A stretch of DNA of 32,000 bases from Candidatus Hadarchaeota archaeon (GTDB lineage: Archaea > Hadarchaeota > Hadarchaeia > Hadarchaeales > Hadarchaeaceae), in NCBI GenBank assembly GCA_964514965.1, contig CAZETV010000002.1, positions 1 through 32,000 of the forward strand. Reading direction: 5' to 3'. This document shows, in pieces, positions 15,472 through 29,862 of this stretch. The notes beneath the pieces were generated by a model. It saw nothing but the letters and a program-made list of their open reading frames with translations. It was not told where the DNA came from and did not search any database. Positions within the stretch are counted from its first letter, which is position 1, and every line of letters begins with the position of its first letter. A program made the position numbers and the translations under genes.

Positions 15472-15621
15472 GGGTACCGTAATAATGCTGTGTAATACAT
15501 TTGAAACCATTTGTTACCATTCTGCGGTTATAGATAATTTCAAACCCGCCTTGATTCAGATAATTAAGTTTAATTTTTAAATAGACGATTCCGAAATGGA
15601 TATCTTAAGAGGTAAATAAAA

Positions 15622-15804
15622 ATGATGGGTTTTAAAAAAGCGATAGCAATAGTCATTTTCACTACAATCGTGGCAGGTTTAGCAGAATACATCAATATAC
15701 TTGCACATCCAAATCTTCAGCCATTATTGACGATATTCATAATTACTATGACAACTTTGACAAATGGATTGTCTGTGTGGTATTATTGCCATAAAAAGTC
15801 TTAA
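15622..15804 (+). CDS. Hypothetical small membrane protein (60 aa, two hydrophobic helices)
   Basis: ATG preceded by GAGGT 9 nt upstream, and two TM-like segments. Very AT-rich, and no recognisable family. Confidence 0.35.
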   Translation: MMGFKKAIAIVIFTTIVAGLAEYINILAHPNLQPLLTIFIITMTTLTNGLSVWYYCHKKS

Positions 15805-15898
15805 CGTCGCCTCTGTGTGTTGTAGTGTAATACTTGGATGGGACTTATTCAAAAGCTGGTTTGATGTTGCAACCTGTTTTACACGCTTATTTAACAAC

Positions 15899-15927
15899 TG
15901 GTGCGGGGGAGGGGATTCGCACCCCTG
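15899..15927 (-). repeat. Orphan copy of the 3' end of tRNA-Leu (C48 plus T-arm, acceptor 3' strand, A73 and CCA); direct repeat of 21000-21028 (candidate att site)
   Basis: tggtgcgggggaggggattcgcacccctg versus tggtgcgggagaggggattcgaacccccg gives 26/29 identical in the same orientation. No remaining tRNA structure follows it. Confidence 0.7.
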
Positions 15928-16121
15928 TTTACTAGTAAATTAAGATTTTAAATCAGTTTTTTTACTCTTGATGGCTCATCTCAAGCCATCTAACTCGAAC
16001 ACGGTGCACGTGCCAATTACTAACTAATACCTCGGGGCTAAAATTCGACCCCAAACGTCTAATACACTATGCCTCTAGAGCCTCCTTTACTTTCCTCAGC
16101 GTTAACCATCGTGCGTCAGGC

Positions 16122-16154
16122 TTAAATAGTAGTTCAAATAATTTTGAAATACTA
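16122..16154 (+). promoter_or_regulatory. TATA-like box (TTAAATA, 16122-16128) plus a 28-bp imperfect palindrome (16127-16154) reaching the permease start codon; candidate ArsR operator
   Basis: TAGTAGTTCAAATA|ATTTTGAAATACTA has 11/14 half-site positions symmetric. The core is TTCAAA-taat-TTTGAA and the outer arms are TAGTA/TACTA. The ATG is at 16154. Confidence 0.45.
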
Positions 16155-17248
16155 TGTACGACATTATCGGATCCGGCTTGAACGCCCTGATGGAGTACCT
16201 CTCGGCGCACGTGCTCACCTGCCTAGTACCGGCTTTCTTCATCTCGGGGGCGATAGCAGTTCTGGTCAGCAAGGGAACCGTCATCAAATACTTCGGGGCG
16301 GGGACCAAGAAGTGGCTGTCCTACAGCGTCGCCTCTGTATCCGGGACAATCTTGGCCGTCTGCAGCTGTACCATCCTGCCCATGTTTCAAGGCATCTACA
16401 AAAGAGGGGCCGGCATTGGGCCGGCCACCGCCTTCCTGTTTTCAGGTCCGGCAATCAACGTGCTGGCGATAGTGTTCACCGCCGGCATACTGGGCTTCGA
16501 TCTGGGGATTGCCAGGGCCGTGGCCTCGATCTCCATGTCGGTGATAATCGGCTTGGTCATGGCCGCAGTTTTCGAGAGGGGCAAGAGGGCGGGGGCCGCG
16601 GCCGTTGCTCCGGCAGTCGCCCAGGTAGAGGCCACTGGGACGCGCCCCAGATATATCTCCCCAGCGTTCTTCGCCCTGCTGGTCACGATACTGCTAGTCG
16701 GCGCTTCTGGCCTGATCTCCCTAGAGTTCAGGCTGGCGGTCGTGTATTTGCTCACCATAGCGGTCGCCGTGATATTGATATTCTACTACTCTAGGGACGA
16801 GGTCAAAAGCTGGGGCCGCGAGACCTGGTGGGTGGTGAAAAGGATATTCCCGATCCTTCTGGTCGGAGTTTTTATAGTTGGGGCCATCGGGGGCGTCGCC
16901 GCTAATTTCTCGCCGTCGCACGACCCGTCGACCGCAGTGGGCGAGCTGACTAGGCCCTACCTCGGCAACAACTCACTCCTCGCCTGCCTGCTGGGGTCCG
17001 TCATCGGGGCGCTCCTCTATATGCCGACGCTGCTCGAGGTCCCGATAGTGGGGACGTTTTTCGGCTACAGCTCCAGGCTCATGGCCGCCGGGCCCGCCCT
17101 CGCCCTGCTGCTGGCCGGACCGGCCATAAGCCTGCCCAGCATGATCGTGATTGTGAGGATGATCGGGTGGAGAAAGGCCAGCGTTTACATTACGCTGGTG
17201 GTCACCGTCGCCACGGCGATGGGCATAATCTACGGTGGATTGGCATGA
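16154..17248 (+). CDS. Permease of the COG0701 / ArsP-like family with a vicinal CxC motif
   Basis: 364-aa polytopic ORF. ILAVCSCTILPMF (Cys-Ser-Cys within a TM helix) and GPATAFLFSGPAINV are typical of this family, which is commonly found next to thioredoxin-like and ArsR genes. Confidence 0.8.
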   Translation: MYDIIGSGLNALMEYLSAHVLTCLVPAFFISGAIAVLVSKGTVIKYFGAGTKKWLSYSVASVSGTILAVCSCTILPMFQGIYKRGAGIGPATAFLFSGPAINVLAIVFTAGILGFDLGIARAVASISMSVIIGLVMAAVFERGKRAGAAAVAPAVAQVEATGTRPRYISPAFFALLVTILLVGASGLISLEFRLAVVYLLTIAVAVILIFYYSRDEVKSWGRETWWVVKRIFPILLVGVFIVGAIGGVAANFSPSHDPSTAVGELTRPYLGNNSLLACLLGSVIGALLYMPTLLEVPIVGTFFGYSSRLMAAGPALALLLAGPAISLPSMIVIVRMIGWRKASVYITLVVTVATAMGIIYGGLA

Positions 17249-17315
17249 TCGCCTCAACGTTCGAACCTCCAACATACTGAGGTCTGCCCACGAAAAAACA
17301 TCCGAAGGGTCAAAC

Positions 17316-19736
17316 ATGGAACAGGGATTTGAGACGAACCTAGAAGACGGCTTGGACGCGCAGGAGGTCCAGAGGAGGCTGGCCAAGTACGGGTACAACG
17401 AGGTTCCCGAGAGGCGAGTGAGTTTTTGGGCGAGACTGGGCAAACGTTTCTGGGGCATGGTGCCGTGGATGTTAGAAGCCACCGCCATCGTCACAATAGT
17501 TCTGGGCAAGTACCCGCAGGCACTCGTTATCGTGTTCCTCCTCCTGTTCAATGCGGGAATGTCGCTGTGGCGTGAGGGTAGGGCAAAGACGGCGATGACC
17601 AAGCTGAAGCAGAGGCTGAGAATAGAAAGCCGGGTAAGAAGGGATAGAAAATGGTCCACCGTCCCGGCTAGGGAGCTGGTTCCAGGGGATGTCGTCAGGG
17701 CCAGGATCGGCGATCTCCTGCCGGCGGACGTAAAGATCGTTGACGGTTCCCTCGGCCTGGACCAATCGGTGCTCACCGGCGAATCCGGAATCGTGGACAA
17801 GCTACCCGCGGAGATAGCCTATTCGGGGTCAGCGATCAAGCGAGGCGAGGCCACAGGCGTGGTGGTTGCCACGGGAACAAAAACCTATTTTGGCAGAACC
17901 ATCTCCCTGCTTGAACTGGCAAAGCCAAAGCTCCACATGGAAGAGGTCACGGTTAAAATTGCTCGCCAGCTTGCGATGCTGGTTGTAGCTTCTCTCCTTG
18001 TCGTCTTTGTCTACGCAGCGCTGACGGGTTTTGAGTTCGCCGTCCTGCTGCCCCTCGCCAGTGTGTTGCTCATAGCCGCTGTGCCAGTCGCCATGCCCAC
18101 AATGTTCACCATAAACATGGCGCTCGGCTCGGCGGTACTGGCCAAGCATGGCATCCTTGTCACAAGGCTCAGCGCCTCCGAAGACGCAGCAACCATGGAT
18201 GTCATATGTGTAGACAAAACGGGCACGATAACCATGAACAAGCTCTTCGTGGAGGAAGAAACACCGCTGAACGGATTCAGCGAGGGCGACGTCGTGTTGT
18301 ATGGCGCACTTGCATCAAAAGAAGCCAATCAGGACCCAATCGACATGGCCTTCCTAACGGCCGCAAAACAAGCAAACCTGACCCTAGACGCTTACTCACA
18401 AGCAGATTTCGTTCCCTTCGACCCCAAAACCAGGATGACCGAAGCCACGATCAACAAAGCGAGCGAAAAATTCTTCGTGGGAAAAGGCTCGTTCGACATA
18501 ATATGCGCTGCCTGCAACGTTCCCGAGGATGAAGCCAAGACAATGCTCAAGTTCGCTGAGGAGCTTTCTGCAAGGGGATTGAGGGTAATCGCCGTTGCCA
18601 AGGGCGAGGATAGAGGCAAGCTGGAGTTTGTCGGCCTCGCGGGCATTGCCGATCGGATAAAGGAGGATTCGCGCGAGATACTCGACCAGATCCGGGGATT
18701 GGGCGTAGAGGTGAAGATGCTCACGGGCGATTCGATTCCGATCGCCAAAAACATCGCACACCAAGTGGGATTGGGCAATAATATCACCACTATGTCAGAG
18801 ATTCAGGAGGCTGAAACCGAAAACACGCCCGTTGACTCGGTGATTGAGGAGAGCCACGGCATCGCCCAGATTTATCCCGAGGACAAGTTCAGCATAGTTA
18901 AGGCTCTCCAGCGCATGGGACACGTGGTGGGAATGACTGGGGACGGCGTGAACGACGCCCCTGCTCTGGGGCAGGCGGAAGTCGGCATCGCGGTGAAGAA
19001 CGCGACGGATATCGCCAAAGATTCTGCTAGTGCCGTGCTCACGGTTGAGGGCCTCGGCGGAATAGTGGGCATGATCAAGACGTCGAGGACGATCTACCAG
19101 AGGATCTACAGCTGGGCGCTGATGATGGTCGCCCGAAAGCTGGATATCGCCGGCTACATCGTCATCATGCTGTTTCTCACCCACTCATTTCTGCTGTCAA
19201 TAACCAGTACGGTGTTGATGCTCTTCCTGGGCGACTTCGTTTCGATGGCCATATCGACAGACAATGTACGCTCCTCTCTCAAGCCTGACACCTTCGACAT
19301 GCGCCGCCTGTTTGGGGTCAGCGGATTACTGGGTTTACTGATGATTATCGAGGGCGTGATCTTCACCGTGCCCGCCCTATTGTACTTTGGGTTGATCGGC
19401 AACGTGGATAAAATCTACACCTTCGGGTTTGCTTATCTCAACTTGGCGGGCATATCCACGCTCATGATAGTTCGTGAGCGGAATCACTTCTGGAAGTCAA
19501 AGCCCAGTAGGTTCTTGAGCGTCATGGTTCTGGCCGAAGTCCTGTTCGTGATTGTCGTCTCCGTCTTTGGCGTTCTAGAGCTTGCGCCGCTCGGCTTCGC
19601 GCCCGTGCTCGCGATTCTCGGCTTCGCGCTGGCAACGACGTTCGTAATCAACGATCCGATTAAGGTATACTTAATACGCAAATTCAAGACTAGCGTAACC
19701 AGTCATCCAAAAGGTTTAAATAATAATTTCAAATAA
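17316..19736 (+). CDS. P-type ATPase, type IIIA-like (plasma-membrane H+-ATPase family)
   Basis: Has DKTGTITMN (phosphorylation site), TGES, MLTGD and MTGDGVNDAPAL. The TM4 motif is AAVPVAMPT (P3A-like) rather than the CPC of heavy-metal P1B pumps. I prefer the ATG at 17316, because the GTG at 17235 would overlap the permease gene. Confidence 0.85.
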   Translation: MEQGFETNLEDGLDAQEVQRRLAKYGYNEVPERRVSFWARLGKRFWGMVPWMLEATAIVTIVLGKYPQALVIVFLLLFNAGMSLWREGRAKTAMTKLKQRLRIESRVRRDRKWSTVPARELVPGDVVRARIGDLLPADVKIVDGSLGLDQSVLTGESGIVDKLPAEIAYSGSAIKRGEATGVVVATGTKTYFGRTISLLELAKPKLHMEEVTVKIARQLAMLVVASLLVVFVYAALTGFEFAVLLPLASVLLIAAVPVAMPTMFTINMALGSAVLAKHGILVTRLSASEDAATMDVICVDKTGTITMNKLFVEEETPLNGFSEGDVVLYGALASKEANQDPIDMAFLTAAKQANLTLDAYSQADFVPFDPKTRMTEATINKASEKFFVGKGSFDIICAACNVPEDEAKTMLKFAEELSARGLRVIAVAKGEDRGKLEFVGLAGIADRIKEDSREILDQIRGLGVEVKMLTGDSIPIAKNIAHQVGLGNNITTMSEIQEAETENTPVDSVIEESHGIAQIYPEDKFSIVKALQRMGHVVGMTGDGVNDAPALGQAEVGIAVKNATDIAKDSASAVLTVEGLGGIVGMIKTSRTIYQRIYSWALMMVARKLDIAGYIVIMLFLTHSFLLSITSTVLMLFLGDFVSMAISTDNVRSSLKPDTFDMRRLFGVSGLLGLLMIIEGVIFTVPALLYFGLIGNVDKIYTFGFAYLNLAGISTLMIVRERNHFWKSKPSRFLSVMVLAEVLFVIVVSVFGVLELAPLGFAPVLAILGFALATTFVINDPIKVYLIRKFKTSVTSHPKGLNNNFK

Positions 19737-19754
19737 AATTGAAATGGTGTTCAC

Positions 19755-20015
19755 TTGAAGATAAGGGTTTTCGGCACGGTACCGCCCTGCGTGAAGTGCA
19801 AGGCAGCCGAAGCGGCAGTGAAGGAAGCCGTGAAGGAGCTCGGCTACAGCGATATCGAGGTGTCCAAAGAGGACGCGCTGTCGGAGGAGGCCGGAAAACT
19901 GGGCATAATGATGACGCCGACGGTGATGATAGACAGCAAAGTTATCAAGGTCGGGGGCGTCCCATCCAAGGACGAAGTTAAGCGGGCCATAGAAGGAACC
20001 AGGAAAGGCGGTTGA
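19755..20015 (+). CDS. Thioredoxin-fold protein (redox-active disulfide protein 2 / Thioredoxin_3-like), CVKC active site
   Basis: 86 aa. MKIRVFGTVPPCVKCKAAE... with a cis-Pro loop (MTPTVMID). TTG start with GGTG 9 nt upstream. Confidence 0.75.
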   Translation: MKIRVFGTVPPCVKCKAAEAAVKEAVKELGYSDIEVSKEDALSEEAGKLGIMMTPTVMIDSKVIKVGGVPSKDEVKRAIEGTRKGG

Positions 20016-20270
20016 ATGGTAAGGCTGGAGGTCTTCACGGCCGAGCCGCCGTGTCCGGGCTGCTTGAAACTACTTGAACTTGCCGACAGGATGAAGGAAG
20101 AATACAGTGACAGGGTCGAGGTCGTGAAGCACATCGGACCCTGCGACGAGTTAGCGAAGTATGGCATAACGGTGGTTCCGGCGACGGTTATCGACGGCAG
20201 GATAAAGCTGATGGGTGTCTGCCCCAGCGAGAGAACGCTCAGGACAGCCCTGTGGGAGGCGGGAGCGTGA
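20016..20270 (+). CDS. Thioredoxin-fold protein, CPGC active site plus two extra Cys
   Basis: 84 aa. The ATG immediately follows the upstream TGA (TGAATG). Has PPCPGC, a cis-Pro loop (VVPATVIDG), and extra Cys in GPCDE and GVCPS. Confidence 0.7.
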   Translation: MVRLEVFTAEPPCPGCLKLLELADRMKEEYSDRVEVVKHIGPCDELAKYGITVVPATVIDGRIKLMGVCPSERTLRTALWEAGA

Positions 20271-20524
20271 AGCTGCTGGTCGAAGTGTTCGTTTCCTTGC
20301 CGCCGTGCTCCGGGGGTAGGATGGTTAAGAAGATGATGGTGGAGATCGTGGAAAAGTACGGGGACCGCGTCGAGATCAAGACATACGAGGGAGCCAACGA
20401 AAAGACCAAGGAATATGGCATCGAAACGACCCCCGCGATTGTCATCGACAAGGACATCAGGATCACCGGCGTCGCTCCGAGCATGGAGACCTTGGAGAAC
20501 GCCTTGAAGGAAGCCGGATTATAA
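20267..20524 (+). CDS. Thioredoxin-fold protein, degenerate CSGG site (monothiol paralogue)
   Basis: 85 aa from a GTG at 20267 that overlaps the upstream TGA (GTGA). A clear paralogue of the preceding gene (EVF..PPC.G...Y.DRVE...YGI...PA.VID...GV.PS..TL..AL.EAG). Confidence 0.65.
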   Translation: MKLLVEVFVSLPPCSGGRMVKKMMVEIVEKYGDRVEIKTYEGANEKTKEYGIETTPAIVIDKDIRITGVAPSMETLENALKEAGL

Positions 20525-20548
20525 GAACCTGAAGGGCTAGTAAAGCTA

Positions 20549-20926
20549 GTGGTAGACTTGAAAAGGAGCGCAAAGGGGACAGGGCCCGTCAGACTTCGAG
20601 ACAAGATATCCGGGGCCTACGACATCTCGGAGGAATCTCTGAAACGTGCGGATAAAGAGATTCGCGCGGACACCAAGGAAGCAATAAAGTTTTTGGAAGC
20701 CTTGGACCACCCAACAAGGTTGCGCATCCTCAGGGCGCTGAGAACGGGGGAACTGTGTGTTTGCGTGTTTGTCGCGTTAATGAAGATTAAACACTCGAAG
20801 CTATCCTACCACCTAAAACTGTTGAAGAACGCGGGACTGGTTGATTCCAGGAAGGATGGATACTTCGTAGAATACAGGATCACCGATTTGGGAAGAAGAA
20901 TGTTGGAGAATATCGAGGGGCATTAA
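20549..20926 (+). CDS. arsR: ArsR/SmtB-family metalloregulator with ELCVC motif
   Basis: Winged-HTH core ALDHPTRLRILRAL..GELCVCVF......SKLSYHLKLLKNAGLV. GTG start at 20549, with an in-frame TTG at 20558 as the alternative. Confidence 0.85.
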   Translation: MVDLKRSAKGTGPVRLRDKISGAYDISEESLKRADKEIRADTKEAIKFLEALDHPTRLRILRALRTGELCVCVFVALMKIKHSKLSYHLKLLKNAGLVDSRKDGYFVEYRITDLGRRMLENIEGH

Positions 20927-20999
20927 AGTCTAACACTTCCCTTGACTGGGGACGCCTTCGGCTAGCTCTTTTGATTCCGCCTCTGACGTCATTAAAAAA

Positions 21000-21102
21000 T
21001 GGTGCGGGAGAGGGGATTCGAACCCCCGAACTCCTTCGAGGCCAGATCTTGAGTTTCGCCCTTTCGCGACTGGCGCCTTTGACCTGACTTGGCTACCCCC
21101 GC
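21000..21102 (-). tRNA. tRNA-Leu (anticodon CAA), class II, with a 15-nt insertion/intron (21055-21069) and genomically encoded CCA
   Basis: Hand-folded. Acceptor GCGGGGG/CTCCCGC, D-arm GCC-AAGTCAGGTCAAA-GGC. After removing TCGCGAAAGGGCGAA the anticodon arm is CCAGA-CTCAAGA-TCTGG. Long variable arm CCTCGAAGGAGTTC, T-arm GGGGG-TTCGAAT-CCCCT, then A73 and CCA. Confidence 0.8.
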
Positions 21103-21163: not shown

Positions 21164-22330
21164 ATGACCGGATTCGAATCCCGTCGCGCTTTCGAACACC
21201 TCGACAAGCTGGCCTACGAGATTGGGCCTCGGTTGGCCGGCACGCGGGGCGACGGCATGGCTGCGGATTATATCCAAACGCAGCTCGAGAGTTACGGGAT
21301 CAAGACGCGGGTGCAGGAGTTCAAGTTCGTGGATCGCGCCGCTCGGGCCAAAGCCACCGCGTGCATCCTCGCCGCAGCTTTCATCACTTTTCTTTTCCTC
21401 CCACCCGAAGCTTCTTTGCTTGTCTGGATTTTGGCACTCATGGTCTGGCGCTCGCTCGATTGGCTCATGCCCAAGCGGAAGAGCCAAAACATCATCGGCA
21501 CTCTCGGGGCGCGAGAGTCGAAGAAGGGGGCCGCGATAACTGCCCACTATGACTCTGCACCTTGCATGGTGAGCTACAAGCTGCACCTATCCGTTAAGTT
21601 CACCTTTGCTCTGGCTCTCGCCCTCATCACCCTCGCCCTAGCTCTCAGGACGTTCAGTTTGCTCCCGGCGTGGTCGGTCGCATGGACAGTACTCGCGATT
21701 GTTTTCATGCCCGTTTGCGTCGGCATGTTTGTTGCAGCGAGCAGCCGGCACGTATCGCCAGGTGCTGATGACAACGCTTCAGGGGTTGTGGTAATGCTAG
21801 AAGCGGCGCGCGTGGCTGCAGAGTCCCCACCTGCTGATGCTAGGTTAACTTTCATCGCACTCGGGGCAGAAGAGCAGGGACTCGTGGGTGCGCGCAGGCT
21901 CGTGGCGAGCAAGGCGCTACCCAAAGACACGATGGTGCTTAATCTTGACATGGTTGGAGCCGGCTCACACGCTTACATCATCGAAGGCAACGGTATCTTT
22001 CTGAGGAGGAGAACTTCGCCCGAGCTCAACGAAAGACTCGCCAACTGTGTCAAAAATGTCGGGCTAAACCCGAAGTTCTGGTGGGCAGCGCTCGCCGGGC
22101 ACGACCACATCCCGTTTGTGCGGGCCAAGATGCAGGCGACTACTTTTTCAATCAGCACTCATGACCAAGACAAGCTCGGCAACTTCATCACGAGGATGTT
22201 CGGGTTGACCAATGCTAAGACAATCGGATATCGCTACATTCACACGCTTGAGGATACTCCCGAGCGGGTTGAGCTGGCTAACATCGAGCGAGCTGGCGCG
22301 GTGGTACTCGAGTTCGTTAAAACAATTTAA
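21164..22330 (+). CDS. M28-family zinc metallopeptidase with inserted transmembrane hairpins
   Basis: M28 ligand motifs occur in order: AHYDS, GADDNASG, GAEEQGLVGA, LNLDMVG, HTLEDT. The ATG at 21164 has a GGGGGAG SD 4 nt upstream. The track start at 21089 overlaps the tRNA gene and is rejected. Confidence 0.75.
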   Translation: MTGFESRRAFEHLDKLAYEIGPRLAGTRGDGMAADYIQTQLESYGIKTRVQEFKFVDRAARAKATACILAAAFITFLFLPPEASLLVWILALMVWRSLDWLMPKRKSQNIIGTLGARESKKGAAITAHYDSAPCMVSYKLHLSVKFTFALALALITLALALRTFSLLPAWSVAWTVLAIVFMPVCVGMFVAASSRHVSPGADDNASGVVVMLEAARVAAESPPADARLTFIALGAEEQGLVGARRLVASKALPKDTMVLNLDMVGAGSHAYIIEGNGIFLRRRTSPELNERLANCVKNVGLNPKFWWAALAGHDHIPFVRAKMQATTFSISTHDQDKLGNFITRMFGLTNAKTIGYRYIHTLEDTPERVELANIERAGAVVLEFVKTI

Positions 22331-28727: not shown

Positions 28728-29000
28728 ATGCCCAAGAAAGGGTCTTACCACGTGCCGACGAACGAGGAAACCGGCTGCTGTAAAGCTGAGTCATTAATAA
28801 CAGTAGATGGACGGGGACAGATGGTGCTTCCCAAAGAGATAAGGGACAGGGCAAAAATTCGTCCAGGTGATAAACTAGCCATTGTAAGCTTGGAAAAAGA
28901 CGGGGAAATATATTACATCTATTTAATTAAAGCTGAGAAAATCGCAGAAATGTGTAAGAGTTTACTCGGCCCCGTGATGAAAGAAATAATCTCAAAATGA
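28728..29000 (+). CDS. AbrB/MazE/SpoVT-type DNA-binding protein with an N-terminal vicinal Cys-Cys motif
   Basis: Looped-hinge-helix core VDGRGQMVLPKEIRDRAKIRPGDKLAI, preceded by EETGCCKAES. Lies 31 nt upstream of arsM on the same strand. Confidence 0.75.
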   Translation: MPKKGSYHVPTNEETGCCKAESLITVDGRGQMVLPKEIRDRAKIRPGDKLAIVSLEKDGEIYYIYLIKAEKIAEMCKSLLGPVMKEIISK

Positions 29001-29031
29001 TGATGGCAAATAACTCTGGAGATGACCAAGA

Positions 29032-29862
29032 ATGAATAATGAAAAAATAAAGAAACCCGTAAGGGAATACTACGCTAAAGTAGCGAAACAGAGCTGCTCA
29101 TGCTACATCCCTGTAAAATCGCAGTGCGGTGTGTGTGGCTCAACACAGGATATGATGGGGTACACCGATGAAGAACTTAAAGGAGTCCCTGAAGGTTCAA
29201 TTTTGGAACTTGGTATTGGAAACCCTGTTGCCCCCGCGTCTTTAAGAAAAGAGGAGATAGTCCTTGACCTTGGTTCAGGCGCAGGACGTGATTGTTTTAT
29301 CGCCGCCAACAAAGTTGGTAAGAGTGGAAGAGTTATCGGCGTAGATATGACACCAGAGATGATCGACAGAGCAAGAAAAAACGCGGAGAAGAGTAACTAC
29401 AAAAATGTTGAGTTCAGGCTCGGAGAAATCGAAAACCTACCGGTTGCCGACAATTCCGTTGACGTAGTCATCTCAAATTGCGTTATCAACCTTGTGCCTG
29501 ACAAAAGAAGGGTCTTAAGGGAGATGTTCAGAGTGATGAAGCCTGGAGGAAGGTTCGTAATCTCAGATGTAATTCTGCTGAAGGAACTTCCCGATTTCGT
29601 GAAGAACTCTGTTGAGGCATATGCTAGTTGTCTTGCGGGAGCGGTCATGAAGAACGAATTTATGGAAGCGATAAATGCAGCGGGCTTTCAGGACGTTAAA
29701 GTGATCGACGAGGTATCATCCCTTACGGAGAGTGTGCTCGACCATCCAACCGCAAAGACAATCATCACAAATTCCAAAATACCACTTAAAAAAGTAAAAG
29801 ATATGGTAATCTCTGCTGGAAGAATAAGAGTTTACGGTGTTAAACCAAACGACAAAATTTAA
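29032..29862 (+). CDS. arsM: Arsenite S-adenosylmethionine methyltransferase
   Basis: SAM motif VLDLGSGAGRDCF, DVVISNCVINL and YASCLAGA (the two conserved catalytic Cys contexts), and an N-terminal Cys cluster CSC...CGVC. Confidence 0.8.
   Translation: MNNEKIKKPVREYYAKVAKQSCSCYIPVKSQCGVCGSTQDMMGYTDEELKGVPEGSILELGIGNPVAPASLRKEEIVLDLGSGAGRDCFIAANKVGKSGRVIGVDMTPEMIDRARKNAEKSNYKNVEFRLGEIENLPVADNSVDVVISNCVINLVPDKRRVLREMFRVMKPGGRFVISDVILLKELPDFVKNSVEAYASCLAGAVMKNEFMEAINAAGFQDVKVIDEVSSLTESVLDHPTAKTIITNSKIPLKKVKDMVISAGRIRVYGVKPNDKI

Follow-up and report, generated by a model that had tools for sequence, protein, structure and literature searches.

Operons of the arsR-arsP-arsE kind, in which an ArsR repressor, an ArsP permease and a small thioredoxin (Trx)-like protein are encoded together, are the closest described systems to the locus analyzed here. 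Such an operon of Pseudodesulfovibrio mercurii, whose ArsE belongs to PF13192, is induced by arsenic; ArsP has been described as an efflux permease for methylarsenite (MAs(III)) and roxarsone(III), and NCBIfam gives the family TIGR00412 the name 'MTH895/ArsE family'. Campylobacter jejuni ArsP and the ArsE of ArsEFG are reportedly further examples of these proteins, and a Cys-x-Cys pair is said to play a role in ArsP. ArsA-ArsB with ArsD is an ATP-driven arsenite pump accompanied by a Trx-fold metallochaperone, in which ArsA, a P-loop ATPase, is bound directly to ArsB. In this study, we analyzed a 32,000-nucleotide (nt) stretch of a Candidatus Hadarchaeota genome (assembly GCA_964514965.1, contig CAZETV010000002.1; hereafter the window), in which a locus at positions 16122–20926 encodes an ArsP_1-family permease, a P3A-type P-type ATPase, three Trx-fold proteins and an ArsR repressor.

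The core of this locus is of the known and partly characterized arsR-arsP-arsE kind, the P. mercurii operon being arsenic-induced and the ArsE family being named in NCBIfam, and to describe the whole as an undescribed module, as the original prediction did from the sequence alone, is too strong a claim. What appear to be new are the design of two operators around a cargo slot, the conserved Trx trio and, above all, the recurrent recruitment of ArsR-linked P3A ATPases to arsenic loci. In the part of the literature covered by our search, no paper linked P3A pumps to ars clusters.

Gene Content and Organization of the Locus

The features of the locus are as follows.

16122–16150, plus strand: predicted promoter P1, TATA box TTAAATA (16122–16128) followed by the palindromic operator O1, TTCAAATAATTTTGAAAT (16133–16150), from sequence and conservation
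16154–17248, plus strand: ArsP_1-family permease of 364 amino acids (PF03773, 217 bits)
17249–17315, plus strand: GC-rich spacer of 67 nt, with the ribosome-binding-site-like sequence GAAGGG 8 nt before the ATPase ATG and without a TATA box
17316–19736, plus strand: P3A-type P-type ATPase of 806 amino acids (TIGR01647), in the cargo slot bounded by the permease gene and P2
19715–19745, plus strand: predicted promoter P2, TATA box TTTAAATA (19715–19722) followed by the operator O2, TTCAAATAAAATTGAAAT (19728–19745), from sequence and conservation
19755–20015, plus strand: Trx-fold protein 1 (Trx1; Thioredoxin_3, MTH895/ArsE-like), CVKC site, TTG start (PF13192, 60.8 bits)
20016–20270, plus strand: Trx-fold protein 2 (Trx2), CPGC site, extra cysteines C43 and C69 (PF13192, 42.6 bits)
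20267–20524, plus strand: Trx-fold protein 3 (Trx3), single-cysteine CSGG site (PF13192, 37.5 bits)
20549–20926, plus strand: ArsR/SmtB repressor of 125 amino acids (NF033788, PF01022)

Six co-oriented open reading frames (ORFs) are thus carried by the plus strand, in the order permease, ATPase, trx1, trx2, trx3 and arsR, with intergenic gaps of 67, 18, 0, −4 and 24 nt. Family profiles match ArsP_1, Thioredoxin_3, P-type ATPase (TIGR01647) and ArsR (PF01022). The six genes first read from the sequence are all present, as are the motifs quoted for them (AVCSCTILP in the permease, the graded sites of the Trx trio and ELCVC in ArsR). Four of the gaps are also as first given; the first is 67 nt rather than 68 nt. 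Position 16122, from which the locus was originally counted, marks the start of the P1 TATA box. Other proteins encoded in the window include Topo VI, aIF5A and CGI-121, which identify the DNA as archaeal.

Both ATPase junctions are reproduced at 100% identity in the independent Logan assembly of run SRR14802574, in which one contig (L106) comprises the left flank, the permease gene and ATPase residues 1–402 and another (L105) the 3′ end of the ATPase gene, the trx trio, arsR and the tRNA gene; a chimeric assembly is therefore not the source of this gene order. The Logan assembly breaks within the ATPase gene, between residue 402 and approximately residue 720, while both flanks assemble cleanly; strain variation may explain this break, or the presence of closely similar ATPase copies in co-occurring organisms.

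The permease scores 217.2 bits against Pfam ArsP_1 (cutoff 32.3) and covers profile positions 5–293 of 294. Its Cys-x-Cys pair, C70/C72 in AVCSCTILP, is located in a predicted hydrophobic segment. The protein lies below the NCBIfam equivalog cutoffs for SaoE (80.3 vs. 325) and SO_0444 (69.8 vs. 300), two related efflux families in which CSC is the most conserved common motif (Haft, preprint). Its nearest homologues are 75–85% identical and annotated as Hadarchaeum or Hadesarchaea.

All three Trx-fold proteins pass the Pfam Thioredoxin_3 gathering cutoff of 24.8 bits; against TIGR00412 they score 56.4, 34.3 and 31.1 bits, all below the curated cutoff of 62, and are family-like. CxxC is present in Trx1 (CVKC) and Trx2 (CPGC), in place of which Trx3 has CSGG. 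The best solved-structure match of Trx1 is MTH895 (1ILO), and it is 79% identical to its orthologue in the relative L078, where the sites of the trio read CTKC, CPGC and CSGG. Single-cysteine forms were also found elsewhere, with CAGG in L102 and CSTS in L074. The triplication with graded active sites had been taken as peculiar to this locus; the same trio occurs in Hadarchaeota relatives and is a conserved feature of Hadarchaeota.

ArsR scores 79.9 against NF033788 (cutoff 55) and 53 against PF01022 (cutoff 22). Its sole cysteines are C70 and C72 of the ELCVC motif (residues 68–72). The protein has a cysteine-free N-terminal extension of 45 amino acids, and neither N-terminal cysteines nor an alpha-5 metal site.

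The Core Module in Hadarchaeota and Its Variable Slot

Contigs of relatives were recovered through the M28 peptidase of the window and the permease, homologues of which are annotated as Hadesarchaea or Candidatus Hadarchaeum; no recorded protein matched the ATPase exactly. The module is arranged in them as follows.

L078, permease identity 75%: Trx-like DF-family protein, permease, three trx genes, arsR, Acr3
L107, permease identity 83%: permease, two DUF169 genes, ORF, B12-radical-SAM gene, ORF, three trx genes, arsR, Acr3-like (SBF) gene, arsR
L109–L111, permease identity 79%: permease, two DUF169 genes, B12-radical-SAM gene, three trx genes, arsR, Acr3-like (SBF) gene, arsR
L108, permease identity 85%: ArsC-like gene adjoining the permease gene

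An Acr3 or Acr3-like gene follows arsR on its 3′ side in L078, L107 and L109, and the Acr3 of L078 scores 337 against TIGR00832 (cutoff 283). The core module is native to Hadarchaeota and stands in an arsenic context there; with L078, L107–L111 and other loci, the combination of permease, Thioredoxin_3 protein and ArsR is the recurrent module it had been presumed to be.

The stretch between the permease stop codon and P2 is a slot of variable content (L107:7152–10403; L109:7151–10197; L112:7231–12301). It is empty in L078, in which just 51 nt separate the permease gene and trx1, and is filled with DUF169 and radical-SAM genes in L107 and L109–L111. DUF169/radical-SAM genes together with an 806-amino-acid P-type ATPase occupy it in L112 and L113, and the ATPase alone in the window. 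The L112/L113 slot also holds a second radical SAM/SPASM enzyme and a B12-binding protein, beside two DUF169 genes. The DUF169 and B12-radical-SAM genes of the relatives are candidates for anaerobic organoarsenical chemistry under the predicted ArsR-controlled promoter P1.

An ATPase gene between permease and redox genes is as unusual as first supposed, and L112/L113, a second Hadarchaeota lineage, shows it again. The L112 ATPase opens with the same MEQ.F sequence as that of the window. In a partial-length, unbootstrapped comparison of the N-terminal 259 residues, the two are 77% identical; the window ATPase is 87–88% identical to those of L097, L005 and L098, and the L112 ATPase 86–90% identical to those of L009 (90%), L013, L011 and L027. 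An origin of the window operon from an L112-like operon by deletion of the genes from DUF169 to the B12-binding gene was considered and rejected: spacer similarity is not above that of shuffled controls (p about 0.4), and the ATPases belong to different subclades. On these two grounds, the simpler reading is that the two Hadarchaeota lineages captured an ATPase independently into the same slot.

Two Predicted ArsR-Controlled Promoters

An 18-nt palindromic motif, TTCAAATAAWWTTGAAAT (TTCAA-N6-TTGAA), occurs at only two sites in the 32 kb of the window, where 0.17 would be expected by chance. Each copy lies 4–5 nt 3′ of a TTAAATA TATA box and ahead of a start codon, which is where archaeal repressors usually have their operators. 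O1 reaches to within 3 nt of the permease ATG, which makes a leaderless or nearly leaderless P1 transcript probable. O2 overlaps the ATPase stop codon, and the TTG start of trx1 follows.

Both arrangements are conserved. P1 is kept in register in 11 of 11 Hadarchaeota-type permease loci recovered, and P2 is kept ahead of trx1 in six loci, and in every relative with the region available, whatever cargo intervenes. The operator before trx1 is identical in L078, which has no ATPase, and near-identical in L107 and L109–L111. The 67-nt spacer upstream of the ATPase gene has no TATA box, and the ATPase would therefore depend on P1; the L112 ATPase is preceded by the same ribosome-binding site and start context. 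Taken together, the motifs and their conservation suggest that a single ArsR acts on both promoters, with P1 serving the permease and whatever follows it and P2, in an autoregulatory manner, trx1-trx2-trx3-arsR. The single transcription unit that had been deduced from gene spacing does not hold, given the second TATA box and operator at the ATPase stop codon ahead of trx1.

The operator motif of the window was also sought upstream of orthologues of the ATPase and was not found there. Their loci carry a different palindrome, AGCAATATTTAAATATTGCT, which overlaps a TATA box in the intergenic regions on the ArsR side and is likely to be the operator of the GEKCVCE-type ArsRs that flank the ATPase, distinct from TTCAA-N6-TTGAA. 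Perfect or near-perfect copies of it, centered on a TTTAAA TATA-like element, lie upstream of arsR in L009, L027 and L030 and in the intergenic region between arsR and a ferredoxin gene (fdx) in L022, L026 and L042.

The P3A ATPase and Its Clade in Arsenic and Metal Islands

The ATPase passes TIGR01647, the P3A H+-ATPase equivalog model, with 677.8 against a cutoff of 615.5, over profile positions 1–754 of 755. Its best solved-structure matches are AHA2 and PMA1 (full-length alignment, E = 1e-121), and the catalytic motifs TGES154, DKTGT300 (D300KTGT) and GDGVND542 are present. The ion-site residues are N79 in transmembrane segment (TM) 2, PVAMPT257 in TM4 and D640 in TM6, with N79 and D640 aligning with N106 and D684 of AHA2. 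Cysteines occur only at positions 298, 397 and 400, all in cytoplasmic domains and none transmembrane. A comparison of the ars-linked clade with unlinked P3A pumps at the TM2 Asn, the TM4 PVAMPT and the TM6 Asp revealed no difference, and an altered ion site in the ars-linked clade was accordingly dropped as a candidate. Judged by these residues, nothing points to a new substrate, and the protein appears to be a bona fide P3A-type pump.

The last codons of the ATPase gene run into the TATA box and operator of P2. The tail was considered as a product of insertion and is not diagnostic, as the number of residues past IRKFKT naturally ranges among orthologues from 2 to 14. An imperfect 23-nt tandem-like direct repeat (19580–19629; 83% identical, 27-nt spacing) lies in the part encoding the last transmembrane segment, where it specifies the repetitive stretch LAPLGFAPVLAILGFAL; it is probably trivial.

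The ATPase has thousands of homologues, the closest being 75–89% identical. These, including those at 84–89% identity, come mostly from Bathyarchaeia of peat, fen, bog and soil and in part from Chloroflexi and Nitrososphaeria; none of the closest homologues shares the flanking genes of the window. We compared genes within 5 kb of the ATPase in 79 loci by neighbor clustering, setting those with at least 60% ATPase identity (n = 44) against those below 60% (n = 35), with the following counts, which are of loci and not of independent events.

ArsR: 27/44 vs. 2/35 (Fisher test, 1e-7)
Small 2×[4Fe-4S] ferredoxin: 27/44 vs. 1/35
P1B heavy-metal ATPase: 21/44 vs. 0/35
ArsC-like low-molecular-weight phosphatase: 15/44 vs. 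0/35
ArsM: 9/44 vs. 1/35
Acr3: 7/44 vs. 1/35
Any of ArsC-like, Acr3 and ArsM: 23/44 vs. 2/35

A typical island has acr3 and arsR on one strand, divergent from fdx, the ATPase gene and arsC on the other, and the ArsRs adjoining the ATPases of the clade carry GEKCVCE. Other arrangements include arsR-permease-trx-ORF-ATPase-acr3-arsC with arsM nearby in a Chloroflexia locus (L015), trx-permease-ORF-ATPase in a Bathyarchaeon (L013), and an ATPase orthologue of 89% identity (L097) that is directly followed by arsM (326 vs. cutoff 263). Such diversity of arrangements and phyla argues against a single inherited island. The link between ATPase and module might have been confined to this one genome; the neighborhood survey found it again in L112/L113, L013 and L015, with the clade situated in ars/metal islands, and the association therefore stands.

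Several further features of the islands may be mentioned. The 2×[4Fe-4S] ferredoxin of Bathyarchaeal islands is usually predicted to be co-transcribed with the ATPase (27/44), and DUF169 also occurs in 7 of 44 islands. Conserved proteins that match neither Pfam nor NCBIfam recur among loci L001–L076 (for example L024:7249–7882, L028:6858–7842 and L021:10638–11234), with lengths of about 110 amino acids (18/44), about 198 amino acids and membrane-like (17/44) and about 109 amino acids (11/44). Plasmids NC_009467.1 and NZ_CP049320.1 (L114, L115) encode P3A ATPases of 37–43% identity, the hosts of such pumps being Acidiphilium, Caballeronia and Methylocella (acidophilic or lichen-/soil-associated). 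They were discarded as ars-linked comparators, since their neighbors are DUF3141, acetate kinase and polyphosphate genes and insertion sequence elements/integrases, with no ars genes.

Probable Integration at a tRNA Gene and a Separate arsM Insertion

The following features flank the locus or lie elsewhere in the window.

15891–15925, no strand assigned: left direct repeat, a displaced copy of a tRNA 3′ end resembling a left attachment site (attL-like), 35 nt and 89% identical to 20992–21026
20992–21102, minus strand: tRNA gene (21003–21102), its 3′ end forming the right repeat copy (20992–21026) (Rfam RF00005, 41.5 bits)
28728–29862, plus strand: MazE/AbrB-like protein (TGCC cysteine pair) and arsM, a separate insertion that is absent in L103 and L104, with a GC content at third codon positions (GC3) of 0.45

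The two repeat copies bracket exactly the 5.1-kb operon, toward which the 3′ end of the tRNA faces. In L103, L104 and L105, too, this tRNA gene stands ahead of the M28 gene. L103 (M28 85% identical) and L104 (81%) share the right-hand synteny of tRNA, M28, phosphoesterase and PHO4 through to Topo VI; on the other side of the tRNA their genes are unrelated, and the operon is absent. The left repeat keeps the acceptor sequence CCCCCGC, as do the native tRNAs of L103 and L104, and the window's own tRNA reads CTCCCGC. The displaced copy is thus ancestral and the functional tRNA changed, the pattern expected if an incoming element supplied the new 3′ end. Most flanking genes have a lower GC3 than the operon (0.63–0.80). 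A search of the window for an integrase gave none, and the islet is therefore either a remnant or mobilized in trans.

ARAGORN found no tRNA in the window because of the tRNA intron; Rfam finds one. The 100-nt gene is probably a tRNA-Leu(CAA) with a 15-nt intron, anticodon and intron having been assigned by hand. Also by hand, a long variable arm, discriminator A73, an encoded CCA and an intron at the non-canonical position 30/31 were recognized. The longest possible M28 ORF (start 21089) would overlap the tRNA; homologues and gene calls put the M28 start at 21164.

This tRNA gene appears to be an integration hotspot. In L103, an MMPL transporter and a MazE-like protein lie within a partial tRNA-end repeat of its own (L103:6030) and are followed by defence-like genes (Cap4 nuclease, Mrr-like); L104 has a TIR-domain protein. 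Between the phosphoesterase gene and the operon, the window contains a low-GC stretch (0.37; 15472–16153) with a 60-amino-acid hydrophobic ORF (15622–15804), and approximately 200 nt to the right of the left repeat are non-coding and could be an attachment site or an element remnant.

The arsM gene (29032–29862) is genuine, scoring 315 against NF008823 (arsenite methyltransferase; cutoff 263). It had been counted as a nearby source of methylarsenite for the locus, and turns out to be part of a separate, strain-specific insertion. Its companion, a MazE/AbrB-like protein with the vicinal cysteines TGCCKAE encoded directly upstream, may be an AbrB-type arsenic-responsive regulator. The same pair of genes, overlapping each other, also occurs in a Bathyarchaeal ATPase island (L036), and MazE-like genes are present in 8 of 44 ATPase islands.

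Functional Model and Alternative Explanations

With somewhat better than an even chance, in our estimate, the locus represents a resistance cassette of the arsR-arsP-arsE type under ArsR control, acquired horizontally and integrated at a tRNA gene, which is directed against trivalent (organo)arsenicals or similar thiol-reactive species and has been extended by a proton pump. The identities and motifs of the genes, the duplicated and conserved operator motifs, the slot design, the repeated and statistical association of this ATPase clade with ars genes and the structure of the islet come from the analysis itself; its inducer and substrate, what the Trx trio does, and the idea that the ATPase is there to pump protons are what we infer. 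The metalloid interpretation that had been offered from the sequence fits the context, with Acr3 located 3′ of the module in relatives and a genuine arsM in the window.

Under this model, an ArsR dimer would occupy the two near-identical operators in the absence of inducer, holding down P1 (permease and ATPase) and P2 (trx1-3 and arsR). Binding of As(III), MAs(III) or Sb(III) to C70/C72 would release both promoters together. The ArsP_1 permease would then export the substrate via its membrane CSC site, powered by proton-motive force, and the ArsE-like Trx proteins, two dithiol and one monothiol, would keep substrate or permease thiols reduced or pass the thiol-bound substrate to the permease. 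Meanwhile, the P3A ATPase would pump protons out at the expense of ATP and sustain membrane potential and cytoplasmic pH for proton-coupled exporters (ArsP-like, Acr3). The host is pictured as a fermentative, energy-limited anaerobe, in which the ATP boost would be indirect and, in effect, like that of ArsA on ArsB. More tentatively, and at somewhat less than an even chance, the P3A clade as a whole may serve arsenic resistance specifically, under ArsR control, in uncultured anaerobic archaea and part of the Chloroflexi, energizing ArsP/Acr3 as a hitherto unrecognized functional counterpart of ArsA, with selection strong enough for it to have entered the Hadarchaeota slot at least two times independently.

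Several points weigh against this interpretation. No Acr3 or ArsC adjoins the module in the window itself, and pairing of Trx/permease genes with the ATPase is a minority pattern (4/44 loci). Many of the 44 loci are from related Bathyarchaeia, so that their counts do not represent independent events. Members of the ArsP_1 family also export Cu/Zn (SO_0444), CVC motifs occur in Cd/Pb/Zn sensors too, and P1B heavy-metal ATPases with CopZ-like proteins are found in 21 of 44 islands, so a soft metal could be the stressor. P3A pumps on proteobacterial plasmids stand in acid- or energy-stress contexts without ars genes, and as the homologues are mostly from peat, bog and fen metagenomes, acid tolerance alone could select for the pump. 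Substrate, inducer and proton transport, moreover, have been assigned from sequence and context.

The main rival, which we consider improbable, takes up the last of these ecological points: the ATPase would be a passenger, an acid-tolerance proton pump that spreads on resistance-bearing mobile islands and landed in a permissive slot. The origin of its homologues, overwhelmingly metagenome-assembled genomes (MAGs) from bog, fen, palsa and soil, fits this, as do a 62% homologue without ars neighbors in the acidophile Nitrosotalea and the plasmid pumps of acidophiles and lichen-associated bacteria, which lack ars context. The slot, besides, accepts unrelated cargo (DUF169 and radical SAM genes), and the ion site is unchanged. 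A mere passenger would not, however, be expected to enter one slot twice from different subclades or to sit without a promoter of its own behind the predicted ArsR-controlled P1. In its native islands, the ATPase gene lies directly behind, or divergent from, a CVC-ArsR gene whose putative operator overlaps the TATA box, and ArsR, ArsC-like proteins and ArsM occur there far more often than around distant P3A pumps, among them pumps from genomes of the same kinds.

It is still less probable that the locus is an efflux or buffering module for soft metals (Cu/Zn/Cd/Hg-type), in which a SO_0444/SaoE-like permease would be joined by a CVC-ArsR sensing a thiophilic cation and by Trx proteins acting as metal chaperones. 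SaoE and the SO_0444 Cu/Zn efflux family are indeed the best NCBIfam matches of the permease and have the CSC motif in common, but the scores are far under both curated cutoffs (80 vs. 325; 70 vs. 300). CVC is also used by CadC-type sensors, whereas the present ArsR has the CVC pair only, lacking the N-terminal cysteines and the alpha-5 metal site. P1B ATPases and CopZ-like genes accompany the ATPase in 21 of 44 islands, yet the immediate neighbors of the module in relatives are Acr3 and ArsC-like genes rather than metal pumps, and the window genome has also acquired arsM.

A relay for thiol-redox or disulfide stress, with the Trx trio as main actors, a permease moving a thiol compound and an ArsR sensing oxidation through its cysteine pair, is very unlikely. 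The conserved grading of CxxC, CPGC and CSGG suggests a relay, and some ArsR-family members sense sulfur or redox state, BigR and MsvR being among the weak matches; their scores are nevertheless far below the cutoffs, the consistent neighbors are arsenic genes, and the named member ArsE is tied to organoarsenical resistance. Least likely of all, the toxic species (a metalloid-thiol adduct or a cation) would leave the cell through the P3A-like ATPase, fed by the permease and Trx proteins. Tight co-location with ArsR-controlled genes speaks for this; against it, the protein scores above the cutoff of the P3A equivalog model, retains the Asp and Asn of the proton site, has no transmembrane cysteines and has a site indistinguishable from that of P3A pumps without an ars link.

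Significance

If the pump is part of the arsenic response, as in the arsenical-cassette model favored above, it would represent a new energizing strategy among ars determinants, with ATP coupled indirectly through the proton gradient, and would suggest, in a form open to testing, how anaerobes that are starved of energy and lack ArsA drive metalloid efflux. Two operators bracketing a swappable slot would constitute a modular design that can be mined for more arsenic-handling genes, the DUF169 and B12-radical-SAM sets of relatives being the obvious candidates for anaerobic carbon-arsenic chemistry. For annotation, resistance islands and not housekeeping pH homeostasis should be the frame in which genes labelled 'plasma-membrane proton-efflux ATPase' are interpreted in MAGs of Bathyarchaeia and Hadarchaeota.

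Comparison with Known Systems

With the P3A pumps AHA2 of plants and PMA1 of fungi, the window ATPase shares DKTGT, TGES, GDGVND, the TM6 Asp and the TM2 Asn; an archaeal P3A H+-ATPase for comparison is Methanocaldococcus jannaschii MJ1226. The window ATPase differs in having no C-terminal regulatory domain, in lying behind a predicted ArsR-controlled promoter and in belonging to a clade embedded in ars/metal islands, a setting that the literature searched does not describe for P3A pumps.

The likeness to ArsA-ArsB-ArsD is an analogy only, consisting in ATP energy added to a secondary exporter, small Trx-fold cysteine proteins and ArsR control. The proteins of the window are unrelated to ArsA and ArsB, with no homology, and coupling would run indirectly via the proton gradient. 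As in tRNA-integrated genomic islands, a repeat of the tRNA 3′ end marks the far boundary, relatives lack the insertion and composition is shifted; in contrast to typical islands, the islet is very small (5.1 kb) and has no integrase.

The ArsR of plasmid R773 shares the ELCVCDL-type cysteine pair in the DNA-binding region, whereas its third cysteine is absent from the window ArsR. SO_0444 Cu/Zn efflux and SaoE permeases belong to the same Pfam family as the window permease and have the same conserved CSC motif (Haft, preprint), and SaoE is likewise paired with a small Trx-like protein, SaoT; the window locus differs from the SaoE system in lacking any other SAO gene and selenocysteine codons. 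The closest likeness is to operon C of P. mercurii ND132 (arsR-arsP-arsE), with which it shares ArsR, a PF03773 Cys-x-Cys permease and a PF13192 Trx-like protein. Compared with such arsR-arsP-arsE operons, the locus in the window has three graded Trx paralogues instead of one, two operator promoters, a slot holding a P3A ATPase, and an archaeal host.

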